Part shown: positions 41,907 to 57,487 of the stretch, one piece after another
Layout: each line of letters opens with the position of its first letter
Position numbering within the stretch: the stretch's first letter is position 1
Assembly (NCBI GenBank): GCA_964560425.1
Contig: CAZLLE010000017.1
Coordinates: 9,084 to 73,083 of the forward strand
DNA: 64,000 nt
Direction: 5' to 3'
Origin: an uncultured Campylobacterales bacterium
GTDB taxonomy: Bacteria > Campylobacterota > Campylobacteria > Campylobacterales > QNZT01
The notes under the pieces: model-generated
The model's database searches: none
What the model saw: only the letters and a program-made list of their open reading frames with translations
Told to the model about the DNA's origin: nothing
Made by a program: the position numbers and the translations under genes

Positions 41907-43832
41907 ATGAATAAAAAAGTACAATTTCTAGCTCTATCAATCACAACAATTGCCCTTCTAAGTGGCTGCGGTGAGGAACCAAAAGAGAATCCACTATACG
42001 AGCAATATCTCATAAACAAAAAAATTGCAGAACTTAACAAACCAAAGGTGCATCAAGAACCTAAAGTAGTAGTGGAACATGAAAAAGAGAAAGAAGTAAA
42101 AACTACACACACACCAGAACCAGAAAAAAAAGAAGTTGTACTAATTCATGATAAAAAAGAAGAACCGAAAGTTGTTCCTACTCCAGAAAAAGAAGAAGTT
42201 AAAAATAATACTCCTGTTCCTGAGAAAAAGGAGGTAAAAGTAGCTACTCCTGTTCCTGAGAAAAAGGAAGTAAAAGTAGTTACTCCTGTTCCTGAGAAAA
42301 AAGAGGTTACAAAAACTCAAGAAATTAAAGAGATCAAAAAAATTAAAGAAGTTCAACCAATCAAAGAGGTAAAAGAGGTTCAACCGATTAAAGAAATCAA
42401 AGAAGTAAAAGAGGTTCAAAAAGTTAGAGAGGTAAAAGAGGTAAAAAATATTACAACTCCAACAGAAAAAAAAGAGATTAAAGAGATTAAACAAGTTAAA
42501 GAGGTAAAACAAGAAACGACAAAAGTTAAAGAGATCAAACAAGTTAAAGAGGTACAACAAGAGACAACAAAAGTCAAAGAGATTCAAAAAGTAAAAGAAA
42601 TCAAAACTGAAATAGAAAAAAAAGAGATCAAAGAGGTTAAGAAAGTTAAAGAGGTCAGAGAAGTAAAACCAATCAAAGAGGTCAAACCTATAGCAATCAT
42701 CGAGAGTACCAAACCAAAAGTACATACTCATATGCATAGACACTCTTCAATACTAAAACACTCTCATCCACACTCTCATAATAAAGATGGATCTCATACG
42801 CACAAACCAAAAATTATAACAAAACCAGTAGTACACACTCATATGCATAGACATTCATCAATACTAGAACACTCACACCCTCATTCTCATGGGGCAAAAA
42901 GTTCACACACTCATGCAATTGAACCAATTACTCAAGCAAAGATAACACAATCACTCACTCAAACAAAAATTTTAAAAGAGGATTCAGCAAAAGATGTTTT
43001 AGACTCTATTAAATTTACACAAACAACAAAACAGATAGAGGTACCAAAAAAAGAGATATCAAATGCTACTCCATTAGATTTAGCAAAAACAAAAGCTAGT
43101 GCTAAAATCGCAAAATCTGTTGCATTAGTTGAAAATGCAAAAGCCGTTGCAACCGCACAAATCGCAACAGCTGTATCAGATGTTAAAATTGCACAAATCA
43201 AAGATAAAAAAGAGCCTATATCAGAGCAAAAGATAAAAAGAGAGCAAGAAAAATCAGATATACAAATCAAAAAAGCAATCCAAACAACTCAAAATGCAAA
43301 AGATAAATCTGCAAATAAAATTGCAAAAAGTATTATCAAACTAGAGAAAGCCATTCCAGAGGATAAAGATATAATCAGCAATGTATCAAGTCAACAAGAT
43401 ATTACAAAAATGCTAACAACTGTAAAAATAATCAAAGAGAATGCAGCAAAAGAGATTTTGAAATCTATTAAATTTATTGAATCTAATGAACCAGTAAATA
43501 AAGAGGAGAGCAAAGAGGTAAAATCTACTAGTGTAGAGATTGCAAAAGCAAAAGCAGCCGCAAAAATTGCAAAATCAATAGCATATGTGGAGAGTGCAAA
43601 AGCTGAAGCAACTGCACAAATAGCCCAAGCTGTAGCAGAAGTAAAATTAGCAGAAGTCAATAGTGAAGATAAATCTATCTCACCAGACAAACTAAAAATA
43701 GAACAAGAAAAATCTGCTGTAGCCATAACCAAAGCTGTAGCAACAACTCAAATTGCCAAAGCAAAAGCAGCCCAAACAATTGCAAAAAGTGTTGAAAAAG
43801 TAGAAAGAGCAAGAGTAGAGACAGAAAAATAA
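41907..43832 (+). CDS. highly repetitive lipoprotein (KE-rich repeats, duplicated His-rich block, duplicated Ala/Lys-rich helical module)
   Basis: Lipobox LLSGC. Contains 3x TPVPEKKEVKV(A/V), many (I/V)KEVKEV units, 2x VHTHMHRHSSIL(K/E)HSHPHSH...SHTH, and two related C-terminal modules of about 150 aa. Confidence 0.7.
   Translation: MNKKVQFLALSITTIALLSGCGEEPKENPLYEQYLINKKIAELNKPKVHQEPKVVVEHEKEKEVKTTHTPEPEKKEVVLIHDKKEEPKVVPTPEKEEVKNNTPVPEKKEVKVATPVPEKKEVKVVTPVPEKKEVTKTQEIKEIKKIKEVQPIKEVKEVQPIKEIKEVKEVQKVREVKEVKNITTPTEKKEIKEIKQVKEVKQETTKVKEIKQVKEVQQETTKVKEIQKVKEIKTEIEKKEIKEVKKVKEVREVKPIKEVKPIAIIESTKPKVHTHMHRHSSILKHSHPHSHNKDGSHTHKPKIITKPVVHTHMHRHSSILEHSHPHSHGAKSSHTHAIEPITQAKITQSLTQTKILKEDSAKDVLDSIKFTQTTKQIEVPKKEISNATPLDLAKTKASAKIAKSVALVENAKAVATAQIATAVSDVKIAQIKDKKEPISEQKIKREQEKSDIQIKKAIQTTQNAKDKSANKIAKSIIKLEKAIPEDKDIISNVSSQQDITKMLTTVKIIKENAAKEILKSIKFIESNEPVNKEESKEVKSTSVEIAKAKAAAKIAKSIAYVESAKAEATAQIAQAVAEVKLAEVNSEDKSISPDKLKIEQEKSAVAITKAVATTQIAKAKAAQTIAKSVEKVERARVETEK
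42210..42317 (+). repeat. three tandem 36-bp coding repeats
   Basis: actcctgttcctgagaaaaaggaggtaaaagtagct occurs three times (units start at 42210, 42246 and 42282) with a few substitutions. All are in frame. Confidence 0.9.
42720..42890 (+). repeat. duplicated His-rich coding block (two 60-bp cores, 111 bp apart)
   Basis: gtacatactcatatgcatagacactcttcaatactaaaacactctcatccacactctcat compared with the copy at 42831-42890. Confidence 0.9.
42968..43829 (+). repeat. internal duplication of a coding module of about 400-460 bp
   Basis: LKEDSAKDVLDSIKF...AKTKASAKIAKSVALVENAKAVATAQIATAVSDVKIAQ... parallels IKENAAKEILKSIKF...AKAKAAAKIAKSIAYVESAKAEATAQIAQAVAEVKLAE... Confidence 0.8.
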
Positions 43833-51621: not shown

Positions 51622-53988
51622 ATGAAGAAATTACTATTTTTAATAATACTGCCATTACATTTAATTAGTGCAACTTTAATCATTAATACAGCTAGAGATG
51701 ATGATAAAACGATCTCTATCTTACATTTAATAGATAATGAAAAGATATCTTGTGAAGAGGTATTGGATGAAGATTTTCAAGATAAAATTATTTGTCATCT
51801 TAGCAAACCAGTGAAAAATTCAAAACCGATAGAAAATCGTTTTTTTAAACTTCACTACTATAAAAATAATGTAGTAATTACACCAAAATTCAAAATGAAC
51901 TTATATGCCCTTCAAGGTGATTTGATTGAGAATAATGAGATTGTACAATATAGTGAAAAGAAGAAGAGATTACATTGGGTTGTTATTGGGTATGAAAAAG
52001 AGCCTATTAGTTTTCATAAAAGCAGTGAAGATGGGCTAAATTTCGCAATAGATTTTCAAAAAAAAGATTTTCCTTTTATTGAGGAGTTAGATCTAAATGG
52101 CAACCCTGCCAAAAATATTTCACATGCTGAAATAATGAGTCGTCTAAAACAATTTTATAAAGAGAAAAAATTTGACATGGCTCTTAATGAGTGTGATAGA
52201 ATTTTTAAAAATGAAAACTCTACATTTTTTAATGAAGCACTACTCTATAAAATGCGTATTTTTTATGATCAGTTATCAGGGGAGAGAGGTATGGAAAAAA
52301 TAGATCCTTATGAGCTGATTGATATGGCAAATGAGTGGATCAGTACCAACCCATCTAATATACACATTCCAGAAGTTTTACTATTTTTGAGCAAAAGCTA
52401 TTTGAGCTTGGGGCAAAATCTAAAAGCACAAAAATATCTTGATCTACTTACAGAAGTATATCCAGATAACAGATTTACACATTTAGCACAAATTATCCAT
52501 GCTGATAAATTGAGTAACTCTGGACAACAAAAGATGGCAATCAAAATATACAAAAAAGTTCTATATTCCACAAAAGATAGATATGTAGCAGCAATAGCAG
52601 CATTGAGACTTAGTCGTACTTATCTTACAAGTTCTGATGTAAATGAGGCAAAAAGATTTTTTGATAAAGTTATGGGTGGAAATAGAGACTTTATCAAAAA
52701 CAATCTCAAAAATTCATTTAGATTTGCCAAGAAATTTGCGGACAATAATGAAACACAACTAGCTATAGATATCGGAAATATTATCAAAAAAACACCAAAC
52801 GATGGCTCTTTAGATGAAGATGAGTTCAGTAAAGAGATGGCAGTTTGGCAAGAGAAGATTGGAAATAAAGAGAAAGCTTTAGAACTATATTATCAATACT
52901 TAGATAAATACCATGCAGGCTCTTATAATGCATTTGTTCAAACTCGTATTGATAGACTTTTAATTGATTCCAATGAATCAAACAACACAAAAAGATTAGC
53001 TCAACTAGACAATATAATGGCAAAATATAAGGGGCAACATATATACAAAAAAGCTCTTTTACAAAAAGCTCAAATCCTACTAGAGGAGAAAAGATATCAA
53101 GATATTTTAGATATAGGAGATATTTTAAAAAAATATGGGGGAGATATCTTGCTAAAGGAGGTTGCTTCCATCGTTGCAAAAAAGTCTCTAAAAAATGGAG
53201 ACTGTGCCAAAAGCATGAGTATGTTGGATGATTATAATATCAGTATGGAAAGTATGAATCAAGAGCAAATTTTTGATTGTCTAATGCGTATCAACAACTA
53301 TCCAAAAGCACTAAAATTGGCAAATAAGTTTGCAAAAAGTGAAAATTTAGAAGAGACTCTAAGGTGGAGTTATGAGATAGTAAAACTTTTTTCAAAAATG
53401 GGTAAATATGAAGATCTTATTCTACTAAGTAAAGATGTTGAAAAGATGGCAAATATCATGAAATTAAGTTCCTTATCAGATGATCGTACCTATGATGATG
53501 TAATTTATGATCGTATTTTCGCATTTTTTAATGTTGATGCTCCATTTGATCTAATTTTGGACGATGTAGTAACAATAGAGAAAAAATTTCCAAACAATCC
53601 AAAAAATCTGGATGTTTATGATCGAATTCTTAGAGAAGCAAAAAAGAGAAAAGATGATCTAATAGTAATCAATTATGCAAAAAAGATAATTGATCTACAA
53701 AAAAAATATAAACTAGATCTCTTTACACCAAAGGTTGAATTAGATTATATTGAAGGATTAAAGAGGCTAGGTAAATTTCGTGAAGCTCTGAAATTAGATC
53801 TTGATCTACTTTATAAAAAAATGAGTGATAAACAGAAGGCTCATGTACTCTATTTAGCAGGAGAATTAAGCCAAAGAATCAATAAAATAGAGGAGTCCAA
53901 AAGCTTTTTTCTTAAATGTGGAGAGATTATTGAGGATAGTGCATGGCGAAAACTATGCGTAGAAAATTTAAAATTACTAGAGGAATAA
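51622..53988 (+). CDS. large secreted TPR-repeat protein
   Basis: Signal peptide MKKLLFLIILPLHLISA. Multiple 34-aa TPR-like helical repeats (A..Y..LL..YP pattern). Start uncertain (51604 or 51622). Confidence 0.65.
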   Translation: MKKLLFLIILPLHLISATLIINTARDDDKTISILHLIDNEKISCEEVLDEDFQDKIICHLSKPVKNSKPIENRFFKLHYYKNNVVITPKFKMNLYALQGDLIENNEIVQYSEKKKRLHWVVIGYEKEPISFHKSSEDGLNFAIDFQKKDFPFIEELDLNGNPAKNISHAEIMSRLKQFYKEKKFDMALNECDRIFKNENSTFFNEALLYKMRIFYDQLSGERGMEKIDPYELIDMANEWISTNPSNIHIPEVLLFLSKSYLSLGQNLKAQKYLDLLTEVYPDNRFTHLAQIIHADKLSNSGQQKMAIKIYKKVLYSTKDRYVAAIAALRLSRTYLTSSDVNEAKRFFDKVMGGNRDFIKNNLKNSFRFAKKFADNNETQLAIDIGNIIKKTPNDGSLDEDEFSKEMAVWQEKIGNKEKALELYYQYLDKYHAGSYNAFVQTRIDRLLIDSNESNNTKRLAQLDNIMAKYKGQHIYKKALLQKAQILLEEKRYQDILDIGDILKKYGGDILLKEVASIVAKKSLKNGDCAKSMSMLDDYNISMESMNQEQIFDCLMRINNYPKALKLANKFAKSENLEETLRWSYEIVKLFSKMGKYEDLILLSKDVEKMANIMKLSSLSDDRTYDDVIYDRIFAFFNVDAPFDLILDDVVTIEKKFPNNPKNLDVYDRILREAKKRKDDLIVINYAKKIIDLQKKYKLDLFTPKVELDYIEGLKRLGKFREALKLDLDLLYKKMSDKQKAHVLYLAGELSQRINKIEESKSFFLKCGEIIEDSAWRKLCVENLKLLEE

Positions 53989-53990
53989 AA

Positions 53991-54497
53991 ATGAAAAAAT
54001 TAATATTAATAGCATTTCTTATAATAGGAACTGTTCAAGCAAATGCATTTGCTGAAATTGGTGCAGGATATGCCAAAGGTAATAATGATGGTAAGTTAGT
54101 TACTGCTTTTGGTTCATTAGCTCTTATTGGTGATATAGATTTGAGATTTGAGTACACAAAAAACATTTCAGAACATCCAGAGTTTACAAAAGAGGATATT
54201 AGTAGATATGGTGTTTTTGCCGTATATACACTCTATTTGGTACCTCATATATCTATAACACCAAAAATAGGAATGACAAAAACTGATAGTGACTTTAAAG
54301 TGAAAGAGGTTCTTGAAAATGTAACTGATTCTAGCACAGAATTTACTTATGGTGTCGAATTAAACTATGATTTAAGTAGAAGTGCCACAATTTTCATAGG
54401 TTATACAGACTATGGAAAAGAGCAAGACATTAAAAATATAGATACTTCTAAGCTAGATAATTCAAATTATGTCATAGGTTTAAAATTGCATTTTTAG
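53991..54497 (+). CDS. small outer-membrane beta-barrel protein (OmpW/OmpA-barrel-like)
   Basis: Signal peptide ending ANA, eight amphipathic strands, and the C-terminal sequence IGLKLHF. GAGGA ribosome-binding site. The start is 3 nt after the TPR gene stop. Confidence 0.65.
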   Translation: MKKLILIAFLIIGTVQANAFAEIGAGYAKGNNDGKLVTAFGSLALIGDIDLRFEYTKNISEHPEFTKEDISRYGVFAVYTLYLVPHISITPKIGMTKTDSDFKVKEVLENVTDSSTEFTYGVELNYDLSRSATIFIGYTDYGKEQDIKNIDTSKLDNSNYVIGLKLHF

Positions 54498-54585
54498 ATA
54501 TTAAATTAATTACTATTCTTTGTTTTATATTATATTTTCATTATAATCACAGATTTTAAATTCTAATTATAAAAGAAGGTATTTT

Positions 54586-55575
54586 ATGAATAAAAATTTC
54601 CAGGAATTATTACGCAGTAGAAAAGAGATTTCAGTAAGATATGATTATGATACAGCAGCAATTTGGTGTTATTTTAATCCAAATACACGCCCATGCTATA
54701 CAATGAGTATGCTTAAAGAAATTTATGAGCTACAGCTATCTATCATTGAATATTTTAAAAATAATGATATGAAACCACAAATTCCTATTCGTTATTATAT
54801 TCTAGCATCACAAACATCGGAGATATATAATTATGGAGGAGATTTAAATCTATTTTACAAGCTAATACTTGAACAAGATCGTGACACATTATATGAATAT
54901 GGAAAAATTGCTACAGAAATAATCTATTTAAATAGTGTGAACTTTAACCTACCAATTACAACAATTGCATTGGTAGAAGGTACTGCTTTGGGCGGTGGAT
55001 TTGAAGCTGCTCTATCATGTAATATTCTGATTGCAGAAGAGAACACCAAAATGGGACTACCTGAAATTAGATTTAATCTATTTCCTGGTATGGGAGCATA
55101 CACACTTTTAGCAAGAGTTCTTGGAATAAACCAAGCTGAAGATATAATAAGTAGTGGAAAAGTCTATGATACAAAATTTTTATATGATCTAGATATTGTT
55201 AATATTTTGGCAAAAAGTGGTACTGGAAAACAGACTTTAGATAAATTTATGAAAAAGCATACTAAAGCATTCAATGGAATGCAAGCAATTTTAAAAGCGA
55301 GACACAGATATAAGCCAATTTCTAGAGATGAACTCATGGATATTAATGAAATTTGGGTCGATGCAGCATTAAAATTAGAGGATAAAGATTTAAAAGTAAT
55401 GCAAAAATTGATAAAAGCACAAAATTCTAAATCAAATAATATGAAAATAAAATCAAGAACAAAACAAGATAGAAGAGTAAATAATAAAAATATAACTTTC
55501 CCTTTTTACGATTCAATAGGAAATAAAATATTTACTGACAGACGAAGTGGCTTAGATAGAAGATTATGTAGCTAA
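54586..55575 (+). CDS. crotonase-fold enzyme of the RpfF/DSF-synthase type with an Arg-rich C-terminal extension
   Basis: VEGTALGGGFEAAL...MGLPEIRFNLFPGMGAYTLLAR (both catalytic Glu), AIWCYFNPNTRPCY, GGDLNLF and LMDINEIWVDAALKLEDKDLKVMQKL are blocks I recognise from RpfF/BDSF synthases. Confidence 0.72.
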   Translation: MNKNFQELLRSRKEISVRYDYDTAAIWCYFNPNTRPCYTMSMLKEIYELQLSIIEYFKNNDMKPQIPIRYYILASQTSEIYNYGGDLNLFYKLILEQDRDTLYEYGKIATEIIYLNSVNFNLPITTIALVEGTALGGGFEAALSCNILIAEENTKMGLPEIRFNLFPGMGAYTLLARVLGINQAEDIISSGKVYDTKFLYDLDIVNILAKSGTGKQTLDKFMKKHTKAFNGMQAILKARHRYKPISRDELMDINEIWVDAALKLEDKDLKVMQKLIKAQNSKSNNMKIKSRTKQDRRVNNKNITFPFYDSIGNKIFTDRRSGLDRRLCS

Positions 55576-55657
55576 AAATACCCTTTCCCATTAAAGTTTT
55601 TTATAGCTCTTACCGATTTAGAGTTGTGAAAAACTAAAAAGGTAAAATGTGGCTTAA

Positions 55658-57487
55658 ATGAAGGGGATATTAAATTTAATCAAAAAGATTATTAAAAAAA
55701 GTGAAGATAATCCAAACTTATCTCAAGCACTTGCTAGAGTTATATTTTCGATAATATTACTTTTAACAGCAACTACACTACAATCTAGTAGTAATTTAAA
55801 TTACTCCTCTATGCAACTGATTGTATTGTTTCATACCATCTATTCAGCTAGTATGCTATATTTGTCATATAAAAATGATACTACTACTTTTGGTAGAAAA
55901 ATGTTTAATATTATTGCAGATCTTGGTGCTTTGTCACTAGTTCTTTATACATCCAATATTGCAACAATATTTGTATATCCTGTTATGCTTTGGATTATTG
56001 TAGGAAATGGTATGCGTTTTGGAACAAAATATCTCTATCTTTCTTTGGCTACAGGAACAATATTTTTTACATTAGCAACTCAATACAATGAAGCTTGGAG
56101 TATACATAAAGAGTTTGCCATATCTATGACAATTGGACTTATTATTTTAACTCTCTTTTACTCTACACTAATCAAAAAAATTTATAAATTAAATCATACT
56201 CTAGAAGAGAAAGTAAAAGATAGAACAGAAGAGTTAAAATTCAGATTTTATCATGACCCTCTAACAAAACTTAAGAATATAGAGGCTCTAAAGTTAGATT
56301 TGGAGAAAGATCCTTTTTTCTCACTATTTTTAATAAGTATTGATGATTTTAAGAGTTTTAATGATCTATATGGAATGGAAATTGGTAATACAATTTTAAA
56401 AGAGAGTACAAAGTTTCTAAAAGATTTGTATACTAATAATAATATAGAGTTATATAGAGTCTATAGCGATGGTTTTGTATTAAAAAATAAAGATAATGAT
56501 GATAATACAAGAGAGGAACTTTTTAATCTCCAAATGAAATTAAGTTTAATGGAATCTACAAAACTTAATCTACAACTCCCAAATATAAATGAAAAATTAA
56601 ATATTGATTTTACAATTATAGCAATACATACAAAAGAGCATGCTTTAGAAAAAGCTAATATGGGTCTAAAATATGCTAGAAAGACAAATAAATCTTATGT
56701 TGATTTTCATAAAAACATGGATGATAAAAAAGAGATTGAAAATATATTATACTGGAAAAATCAGATCAAAGAGGCTATTGAAGAAGATAGGATTATCCCC
56801 GTTTTTCAGCCAATTGTAGATAAAAATGGAGATATCCTAAAATATGAAGCACTTGTGAGATTAAAAAAAGGTAAGAAACTAATTTCACCATATTTCTTTT
56901 TAGATATCTCTATTCAAACTAAACAATATGAGAAGATAACATCTATTATGATAGATAAAAGTTTTATCCTTATGAGTAAAATAGGGAAAGATTTCTCTAT
57001 TAATCTATCTTTTGCTGATATTAAAAATCAACTTTTAATAAATCAGCTTTTTAGAAAAATTCAACAATATAATATTGGCTCACAACTAATTATCGAAATT
57101 GTTGAGAGTGAGGATATAGAAGATTTTATTATTGTTGAGACATTTATCAAAAATATTCGAAAATTCGGAGTGCGAGTTGCAATTGATGATTTTGGAACAG
57201 GCTATTCAAATTATACTCACATACTCAAAATTATGCCTGATTATCTGAAAATAGATGGATCACTTATAAAAAATATTAATACAGATACAAACGCCCATAA
57301 ATTAGTAGAGTCTATTATTTTTCTAAGTCACAACTTAGGCATTAAAACCATTGCAGAGTATGTTCATTCAAAAGAGGTTTTTGATGTTGTAAAAAAATTA
57401 GATATTGACGAGTTTCAGGGCTTCTATTTTTATGAACCACTATTACAAGAGAGTGTAGAAGATAAGATTCTTGAATTATCCTATTAG
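55658..57487 (+). CDS. membrane-bound degenerate-GGDEF / EAL c-di-GMP phosphodiesterase
   Basis: About five N-terminal TM helices. GGDEF-like domain with YSDGF in place of GGDEF. Intact EAL signature (EALVRL, EIVESE, DDFGTGYSN, KIDGS, QGFYF). Confidence 0.85.
   Translation: MKGILNLIKKIIKKSEDNPNLSQALARVIFSIILLLTATTLQSSSNLNYSSMQLIVLFHTIYSASMLYLSYKNDTTTFGRKMFNIIADLGALSLVLYTSNIATIFVYPVMLWIIVGNGMRFGTKYLYLSLATGTIFFTLATQYNEAWSIHKEFAISMTIGLIILTLFYSTLIKKIYKLNHTLEEKVKDRTEELKFRFYHDPLTKLKNIEALKLDLEKDPFFSLFLISIDDFKSFNDLYGMEIGNTILKESTKFLKDLYTNNNIELYRVYSDGFVLKNKDNDDNTREELFNLQMKLSLMESTKLNLQLPNINEKLNIDFTIIAIHTKEHALEKANMGLKYARKTNKSYVDFHKNMDDKKEIENILYWKNQIKEAIEEDRIIPVFQPIVDKNGDILKYEALVRLKKGKKLISPYFFLDISIQTKQYEKITSIMIDKSFILMSKIGKDFSINLSFADIKNQLLINQLFRKIQQYNIGSQLIIEIVESEDIEDFIIVETFIKNIRKFGVRVAIDDFGTGYSNYTHILKIMPDYLKIDGSLIKNINTDTNAHKLVESIIFLSHNLGIKTIAEYVHSKEVFDVVKKLDIDEFQGFYFYEPLLQESVEDKILELSY

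Follow-up and report, generated by a model that had tools for sequence, protein, structure and literature searches.

Two core designs are known for the receptors of fatty acids in the DSF (diffusible signal factor) family: the RpfC/RpfG phosphorelay and the soluble receptor RpfR. The phosphorelay belongs to the RpfF-RpfC-RpfG system of Xanthomonas campestris (Xcc), which also occurs in Methylobacillus, Thiobacillus and Leptospirillum, the genera for which rpfF-rpfG-rpfC clusters have been named (PMC4504480). Here we describe two adjacent genes in a stretch of 64,000 nucleotides from an uncultured Campylobacterales bacterium (assembly GCA_964560425.1, contig CAZLLE010000017.1, positions 9,084 to 73,083; the whole stretch is called the window below). 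The first gene encodes a crotonase of the RpfF family, and the second encodes a membrane protein of 609 residues in which an RpfC-type input domain precedes two others, a degenerate GGDEF and an EAL. With moderate confidence, we read the pair as a compact one-component DSF-family quorum-sensing module, combining the input of RpfC with an RpfR-like EAL output. The two genes are laid out as follows.

54586-55575, + strand: gene of the RpfF-family crotonase, a putative DSF-family signal synthase (329 residues; NF006452, PDB and Foldseek matches).
55576-55657, + strand: intergenic spacer between the crotonase gene and the gene of the 609-residue protein (82 bp).
55658-57487, + strand: gene of the membrane protein with RpfC-type input, degenerate GGDEF and EAL (609 residues; Pfam and alignments).

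An earlier note on this DNA had given the coordinates of both reading frames, the 82-bp gap and a set of diagnostic motifs. All were found as claimed, and the translations contain AIWCYFNPNTRPCY, GGDLNLF, VEGTALGGGFEAAL, GLPEIRFNLFPGMGAYTLLAR, LMDINEIWVDAALKLEDKDLKVMQKL, YSDGF and GMEIGN. The two genes are probably co-transcribed, and a promoter/terminator scan found no terminator-like site on the + strand between them.

The crotonase, which Pfam assigns to ECH_1/ECH_2, was compared with NCBIfam models. On NF006452/PRK08788 it passes with 349.6 bits against a cutoff of 177, and with the same model the validated Bcam0581/DfsA scores 396.6 bits and Xcc RpfF 395 bits; the sequences of the three solved synthases, including these two, were rebuilt from PDB alignments before the scan. 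Metabolic hydratase models, in contrast, give the crotonase at most 74 bits. A PDB sequence search agrees, with RpfF/DfsA entries in the top four places (155-164 bits) and the best metabolic hydratase at 65 bits; DspI reaches 40 bits. When the AlphaFold2 model of the crotonase (predicted local distance difference test score, pLDDT, 80.5) was searched against the PDB with Foldseek, the top 12 matches were all DSF synthases (DfsA, RpfF, Cronobacter RpfF and RpF-1); their E-values run from 1e-22 to 2e-19, their root-mean-square deviation (rmsd) is about 2 Å and their target-normalised TM-scores are 0.89-0.93. Metabolic hydratases come next, with E-values of 1e-13, nine orders of magnitude weaker, and an rmsd of about 16 Å, while DspI ranks 39th. 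The predicted fold is that of a crotonase whose C-terminal helices are arranged as in RpfF.

The active site is likewise that of a DSF synthase. Residue roles have been described for catalysis and the substrate pocket of Xcc RpfF (PMC9864630), and all nine of these active-site and pocket residues are present at the aligned positions of the crotonase. The seven pocket residues M169, W257, L135, G136, G137, G84 and L275 of the window protein correspond to Met170, Trp258, Leu136, Gly137, Gly138, Gly85 and Leu276 of Xcc RpfF, and the remaining two are the catalytic glutamates, assigned from an alignment to 3m6m, in which the chain numbering is offset by 16.

55003-55065, + strand: codons of the catalytic glutamates E140 (55003-55005) and E160 (55063-55065), equivalent to Glu141 and Glu161 of Xcc RpfF.

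In an alignment of 19 sequences (A1), E140 is invariant and E160 nearly so. The crotonase shows 36% identity with Bcam0581 and 34% with Xcc RpfF, two enzymes that are themselves only 38% identical; in a neighbour-joining analysis, its identity to the Thiobacillus and Methylobacillus crotonases of RpfC-kinase clusters is 46-48%. Hence, by sequence, predicted fold and active-site residues, the crotonase is of the RpfF/Burkholderia diffusible signal factor (BDSF) synthase type and not a metabolic hydratase, and the earlier note's placing of it apart from the metabolic enzymes is borne out by NCBIfam, PDB and Foldseek. Recognition of the RpfF homolog is in itself not new, since IMG already labels such crotonases 'DSF synthase' automatically.

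The 609-residue protein is composed of three parts.

55658-56191, + strand: RpfC-type polytopic membrane input domain, residues 1-178 (phmmer, A3 profile and AlphaFold2).
56249-56686, + strand: degenerate GGDEF domain, residues 198-343 (weak Pfam match, 41 bits; YSDGF at 56462-56476).
56759-57439, + strand: EAL domain, residues 368-594 (strong Pfam match, 180 bits).

To place the membrane part, 80 genomic loci with relatives of the crotonase were gathered and their open reading frames were searched with pieces of both window proteins. In most distant loci, residues 1-190 match the N-terminus of a gene convergent to the crotonase gene, whose product has the RpfC architecture of transmembrane (TM) helices followed by HisKA, HATPase, REC and Hpt. 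Single-sequence phmmer comparisons of the input domain with these kinases give 24-78 bits with low bias, and the A3 profile gives 134-215 bits on kinase N-termini in 54 of 72 loci, with 160 bits for the window protein itself; the proteins matched by the domain profile are named 'sensor histidine kinase RpfC' by JGI. In Methylobacillus a REC-HD-GYP protein comes after the kinase, completing a canonical rpfF-rpfC-rpfG cluster, and among PDB entries consisting of REC alone the REC domain of this cluster is closest to that of Xcc RpfC (3m6m_D, 75.8 bits). A string that we take to be the N-terminus of Xcc RpfC aligns over its whole length with window residues 1-177 at E=2e-13. This presumed sequence agrees with the 11 residues given in PMC5391125, namely K2, S3, R15, A16, D17, S18, E19, A21, Q22, L172 and A178.

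Conserved positions of the input domain are R27, R80, D88, L111-W112, G116-N117-G118-x-R120-x-G122 and Y125-L126, and the GNGxRFG at 116-122 is among the motifs common to the window domain and the kinase domains. Its AlphaFold2 model (pLDDT 95.3) begins with an amphipathic helix, continues with six helices of membrane length and ends in a long exit helix at 151-189. The earlier note had counted about five TM helices, which fits the five of the published topologies of RpfC and of PA1396, the interspecies DSF sensor kinase of Pseudomonas aeruginosa (PMC5391125, PMC6536496), but not the six, plus the amphipathic helix, of the model. It had also taken the membrane module for a different receptor solution; this does not hold, as the module is, on the comparisons of sequence given above, a homolog of the membrane input domain found in RpfC-type DSF sensor kinases, and a known solution has been recombined with GGDEF-EAL. 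After the membrane domain Pfam finds only GGDEF and EAL, with no HisKA-HATPase-REC-Hpt transmitter, so the protein is not an RpfC and shares only its input domain. Nor does the Pfam scan of the 609-residue protein find a PAS domain, residues 1-190 being membrane helices in place of the FI and PAS domains of RpfR.

On the output side, GHxxGD is replaced by GMEIGN, and in the alignment to PA0861 the GGDEF motif falls on YSDGF. None of 19 orthologs (31-100% identity) has an intact GGDEF; most of them read Y(G/S/A)DGF at this site. The EAL domain retains EALVR, N449, EIVESE, DDFGTGYS, KID, AEY and FQG in the window protein, and the corresponding catalytic signatures (ExLxR, N, EIxE, DDFG(T/S)G, KID, AE(Y/F) and QG) are invariant in the 19 orthologs. 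A degenerate GGDEF beside an intact EAL had been claimed before, and both the PA0861 alignment and the orthologs agree with it. With the EAL signatures intact and the GGDEF site degenerate, the protein is expected to be a phosphodiesterase in which the GGDEF domain plays a regulatory role.

About 16 full-length orthologs of the receptor were found in all. The crotonase gene is immediately adjacent in seven of nine distinct contexts (the window, L084, L007, L089, L090, L091 and L093), confirming the expectation that the pair would be syntenic in relatives, and in L092 it lies 2.2 kb from the receptor gene. The flanking genes differ among these contexts and the pair occurs both in tandem and convergently; since the two stand side by side in unrelated neighbourhoods and in either orientation, their pairing is not due to chance. 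The linkage of crotonase and receptor is strong, although not absolute.

Family membership suggests that the crotonase would dehydrate a 3-hydroxyacyl thioester drawn from fatty-acid synthesis and then cleave it, releasing a free cis-2-unsaturated fatty acid. Such a lipophilic signal would partition into the membrane, where the RpfC-type input domain of the 609-residue protein would perceive it, as homology and the conserved gene linkage indicate. From there the signal may travel along the long helix 151-189 to the non-catalytic GGDEF domain and the catalytically competent EAL domain, and hydrolysis of cyclic diguanosine monophosphate (c-di-GMP) would change. The most likely direction of this change is activation, by analogy with RpfC/RpfG and RpfR. 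In this way the chimera would bypass the phosphorelay from RpfC to RpfG.

The crotonase has a further feature, missed in the earlier note.

55441-55572, + strand: Arg-rich C-terminal tail of the crotonase, residues 286-329 (44 residues; alignment A1).

The tail follows the pattern RTKQDRR, 7-8 residues, FPxxDxxGNxV, one residue and DRRxxxDRR. Alignment A1 shows it conserved in each of its 19 sequences, and 115 of the 120 best homologs have it too; the characterised RpfF and Bcam0581 lack it, as does each crotonase that is partnered by an RpfC-type kinase. The tail-bearing crotonases form a split in 190 of 200 bootstraps (95%). In the AlphaFold2 model the tail is mostly of low confidence, with one small hairpin, and no Pfam or NCBIfam model covers it. 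A PilZ RxxxR motif and an I-site RxxD motif were considered for it and rejected, as the spacing does not fit on inspection.

The partners of the crotonases in this clade are membrane GGDEF-EAL proteins, never kinases. At least three types of membrane input are found among their partners: the RpfC type; an unrelated five-helix domain joined to an intact GGDEF, as in Sulfurovum NBC37-1 (L088), L005 and L006; and a TM-PAS type in Desulfobacterota. Genes of the five-helix type lie immediately upstream of the tail-bearing crotonase genes (L088 3017-4987, + strand; L005 4056-5987; L006 3984-6005), and their products, in which the domain is fused to an intact GGDEF-EAL, have an N-terminal FSD(D/E)EYELKS motif and a later WFLVIIxxFFLGG. 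This domain has no Pfam match, and remote kinship with the RpfC type was rejected in the three loci (hhalign probability 0.7%). Gammaproteobacterial loci carry a divergent form of the tail, and they too have a GGDEF-EAL gene nearby. Crotonases paired with the RpfC-type EAL receptor came out as monophyletic in 0 of 200 bootstraps; hence co-inheritance of synthase and receptor subtype is not demonstrated.

Speculatively, the tail may dock the synthase to its GGDEF-EAL partner. We put forward, as a tentative proposal that we think more apt to be wrong than right, that it is a third synthase-receptor coupling device, acting as a tether or regulator on membrane GGDEF-EAL partners or responding to c-di-GMP, and replacing the RpfC-REC and RpfR-FI contacts. 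It would then define a widespread DSF branch in Campylobacterota, Desulfobacterota and some Gammaproteobacteria, whose partners have interchangeable inputs.

The RpfC-type input domain extends well beyond this branch. When 1.84 billion cluster representatives were searched exhaustively with phmmer, 1157 of them matched it at E<=1e-3. By a motif-based sort, the best 150 representatives comprise 83 kinases, 23 proteins with GGDEF only and 9 with GGDEF-EAL, the rest being fragments, and Pfam scans of 61 of these proteins were consistent with the sort. Pfam has no model for the domain, and the sole match, to 8xMP, is weak. The GGDEF-only proteins are about 340-395 residues long and have an intact GGDEF (e.g. 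P0235, P0250, P0254 and P0257); consisting of the input domain and a stand-alone GGDEF, they are putative fatty-acid-responsive diguanylate cyclases. In Alphaproteobacteria an RpfC-type kinase gene is convergent to the crotonase gene and is followed by an EAL-containing gene in place of the HD-GYP gene rpfG. The one product scanned, that of L030 9422-11611 (- strand), is REC-PAS-GGDEF-EAL by Pfam, and the same layout of an EAL gene after the kinase gene occurs in L015, L023, L033, L056, L057, L069, L077 and L083. Thus, a graded series of outputs exists, from kinase with REC-HD-GYP, through kinase with REC-PAS-GGDEF-EAL, to direct fusion.

Short paralogs of the input domain, reminiscent of Xanthomonas RpfH, were also seen beside full kinases, in L078 (9707-10645 and 10869-11816, both - strand) and in L027 (9695-11083 and 10570-11442, both - strand). 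Pfam finds only a HisKA stub in L078 9707-10645, the one that was scanned.

Several observations weigh against the reading of the pair as a one-component DSF module. On the xanthomonad RpfF equivalog NF053515 the crotonase fails, with 193 bits against a cutoff of 550. Xcc RpfF scores 520 bits on this model, and the validated BDSF synthase Bcam0581 fails as well, with 185.6 bits; since NF006452 holds both validated enzymes, failure on the xanthomonad-specific model says nothing on function. The linkage has its gaps, in that the receptor ortholog L094 has no crotonase gene in its short available flank, and a 70%-identical crotonase gene (L004/L086) has no EAL neighbour and lies between secretin and HAD hydrolase genes. 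In Xcc RpfC, R15, D17, S18, E19 and Q22 dock DSF (PMC5391125), and conservation of E19 was reported for every RpfC-type input domain (PMC6536496). In the window protein, R15, D17, S18 and E19 are not conserved, E19 being replaced by N20; only Q22 of the five is retained, as Q23, with D17 as well in the pairwise alignment. With three unrelated inputs in the tail clade, moreover, the input domain may not define the partnership, and neither the product nor the ligand nor the sign of regulation is more than an inference.

These points lend some substance to an alternative that we nevertheless consider unlikely, in which the two proteins are functionally linked and the RpfC-type domain is a general sensor of membrane or lipid state. 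Coupling would then come about through protein contact, for example by the tail, or through control of the synthase by c-di-GMP. It is in keeping with this alternative that tail-bearing crotonases pair with GGDEF-EAL proteins of three unrelated membrane inputs, that the DSF-docking residues of RpfC are mostly not conserved in the 609-residue protein, and that the input domain is also present on many stand-alone GGDEF cyclases, seen as proteins apart from their genomic context. However, all characterised proteins with this domain, RpfC and PA1396, sense fatty acids of the DSF family (PMC5391125, PMC6536496), and in 54 of 72 loci of the kinase type an RpfF-family gene is linked to the domain. 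Furthermore, PA1396 senses DSF through TM helices IV-V, its N-terminus being dispensable (PMC6536496), and it is the TM IV-V region that contains the most conserved motif of the input domain.

Less probable again is that the 609-residue protein responds to DSF as a c-di-GMP receptor or scaffold, or that it is a phosphodiesterase inhibited, and not activated, by the signal. The sign of regulation is not readable from the sequence, and membrane proteins with degenerate GGDEF-EAL domains, such as LapD, do act as receptors; the NCBIfam LapD model matches the 609-residue protein, although its 118.8 bits lie far under the cutoff of 1020. Receptors of the LapD type have lost the EAL catalytic signatures, whereas here the catalytic and metal-binding signatures are invariant in the 19 orthologs. 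Finally, that the crotonase is an ordinary metabolic enoyl-CoA hydratase or isomerase whose adjacency to the EAL gene is incidental is hardly credible: its fold is the generic crotonase fold and its homologs are annotated in NCBI records as just 'enoyl-CoA hydratase', but a metabolic identity is ruled out by the hidden Markov model scores (at most 74 bits on metabolic families against 350 on that of the DSF synthases), the PDB matches and the fold comparison, and it sits poorly with the lack of nearby beta-oxidation genes and with an adjacency conserved across differing contexts.

The GC content is about 30%, and the relatives are Campylobacterota; the same locus is carried by a 169-kb metagenome contig. 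Upstream lie genes for CiaB, a DUF7494/TPR protein and a small outer-membrane protein (OMP) barrel, and downstream are IlvE-like, SPFH and HisIE genes. As the earlier note had stated, no fatty-acid degradation (beta-oxidation) genes are present nearby, none being found within 8 kb on either side of the pair. The OMP_b-brl beta-barrel gene directly upstream of the crotonase gene (53943-54497, + strand, 184 residues) shares 46 nt with the end of the DUF7494/TPR gene. The order CiaB-TPR-OMP-crotonase-EAL is retained only in L084, an 81%-identical relative, which places the OMP_b-brl gene outside the conserved module. In this AT-rich DNA the promoter scan was uninformative, with 31 promoter-like sites against 26 expected. 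A TATAAT hexamer at 54542-54547, about 38 bp 5' of the crotonase start codon, and, at 54574-54580, a ribosome-binding site of sequence AAGAAGG are consensus matches only, and the scan called no full promoter at the hexamer.

Elsewhere in the window, 41907-43832 (+ strand) encodes a predicted lipoprotein of 641 residues with the lipobox LSGC. Its long tandem repeats (PEKKEVK, KEVKEVQ) are rich in K, E and V, and it has two possibly metal-binding, His-rich blocks of sequence HTHMHRHSSIL(K/E)HSHPHSH. This gene accounts for a spike of 0.415 in AT skew at 42-44 kb.

In the literature searched, we found nothing relevant that links RpfF or DSF to Campylobacterota, to Epsilonproteobacteria or to hydrothermal vents, in line with the earlier note, which knew of no DSF signalling described in Campylobacterota, and no description of an RpfC-input::GGDEF-EAL receptor or of the synthase tail. 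If the chimera is what we propose, DSF-type quorum sensing would reach sulfur-oxidising and environmental Campylobacterota, in which biofilm control is ecologically important, and the fatty-acid-sensing membrane module would be a portable input domain. Lipid detection by the structurally uncharacterised RpfC-type domain would gain a simpler read-out, the phosphodiesterase activity of one protein. The synthase tail, in turn, points to an unexplored coupling of signal synthesis and c-di-GMP turnover.

Compared with DspI (PA0745), the cis-2-decenoic acid synthase of P. aeruginosa, the window enzyme is likewise a crotonase implicated in a cis-2 signal. The two are only distantly related, however, and the neighbours of DspI are genes of fatty-acid metabolism, while the window enzyme stands beside a sensor. 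PA1396 of the same species has an RpfC-related input domain as well, and its sensing through TM IV-V, not the N-terminus, is compatible with the divergent N-terminus of the window protein; yet it is a histidine kinase whose genome holds no cognate synthase, whereas the window protein, a GGDEF-EAL enzyme, has a synthase gene next to its own.

With RpfF-RpfR of Burkholderia cenocepacia and Cronobacter turicensis, the window pair has in common a one-component GGDEF-EAL receptor encoded beside an RpfF-family synthase, and in both the signal is expected to control the phosphodiesterase activity of EAL. RpfR, however, is soluble, senses BDSF through its PAS domain and binds RpfF through its N-terminal FI domain; the window protein has a membrane input instead, and its GGDEF site, unlike that of RpfR, is degenerate (YSDGF). 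With RpfF-RpfC-RpfG of Xanthomonas campestris it shares the synthase family, the polytopic membrane input domain, the adjoining of sensor and synthase genes and, as the expected end point, the degradation of c-di-GMP. Unlike RpfC, the window protein is without HisKA, HATPase, REC and Hpt, does not conserve the docking residues R15, D17, S18 and E19, and has its input fused to GGDEF-EAL with no separate RpfG, so that hydrolysis of c-di-GMP would be carried out by EAL and not by HD-GYP. Unlike Xcc RpfF, the window synthase has no REC domain to bind, and it carries the Arg-rich tail.

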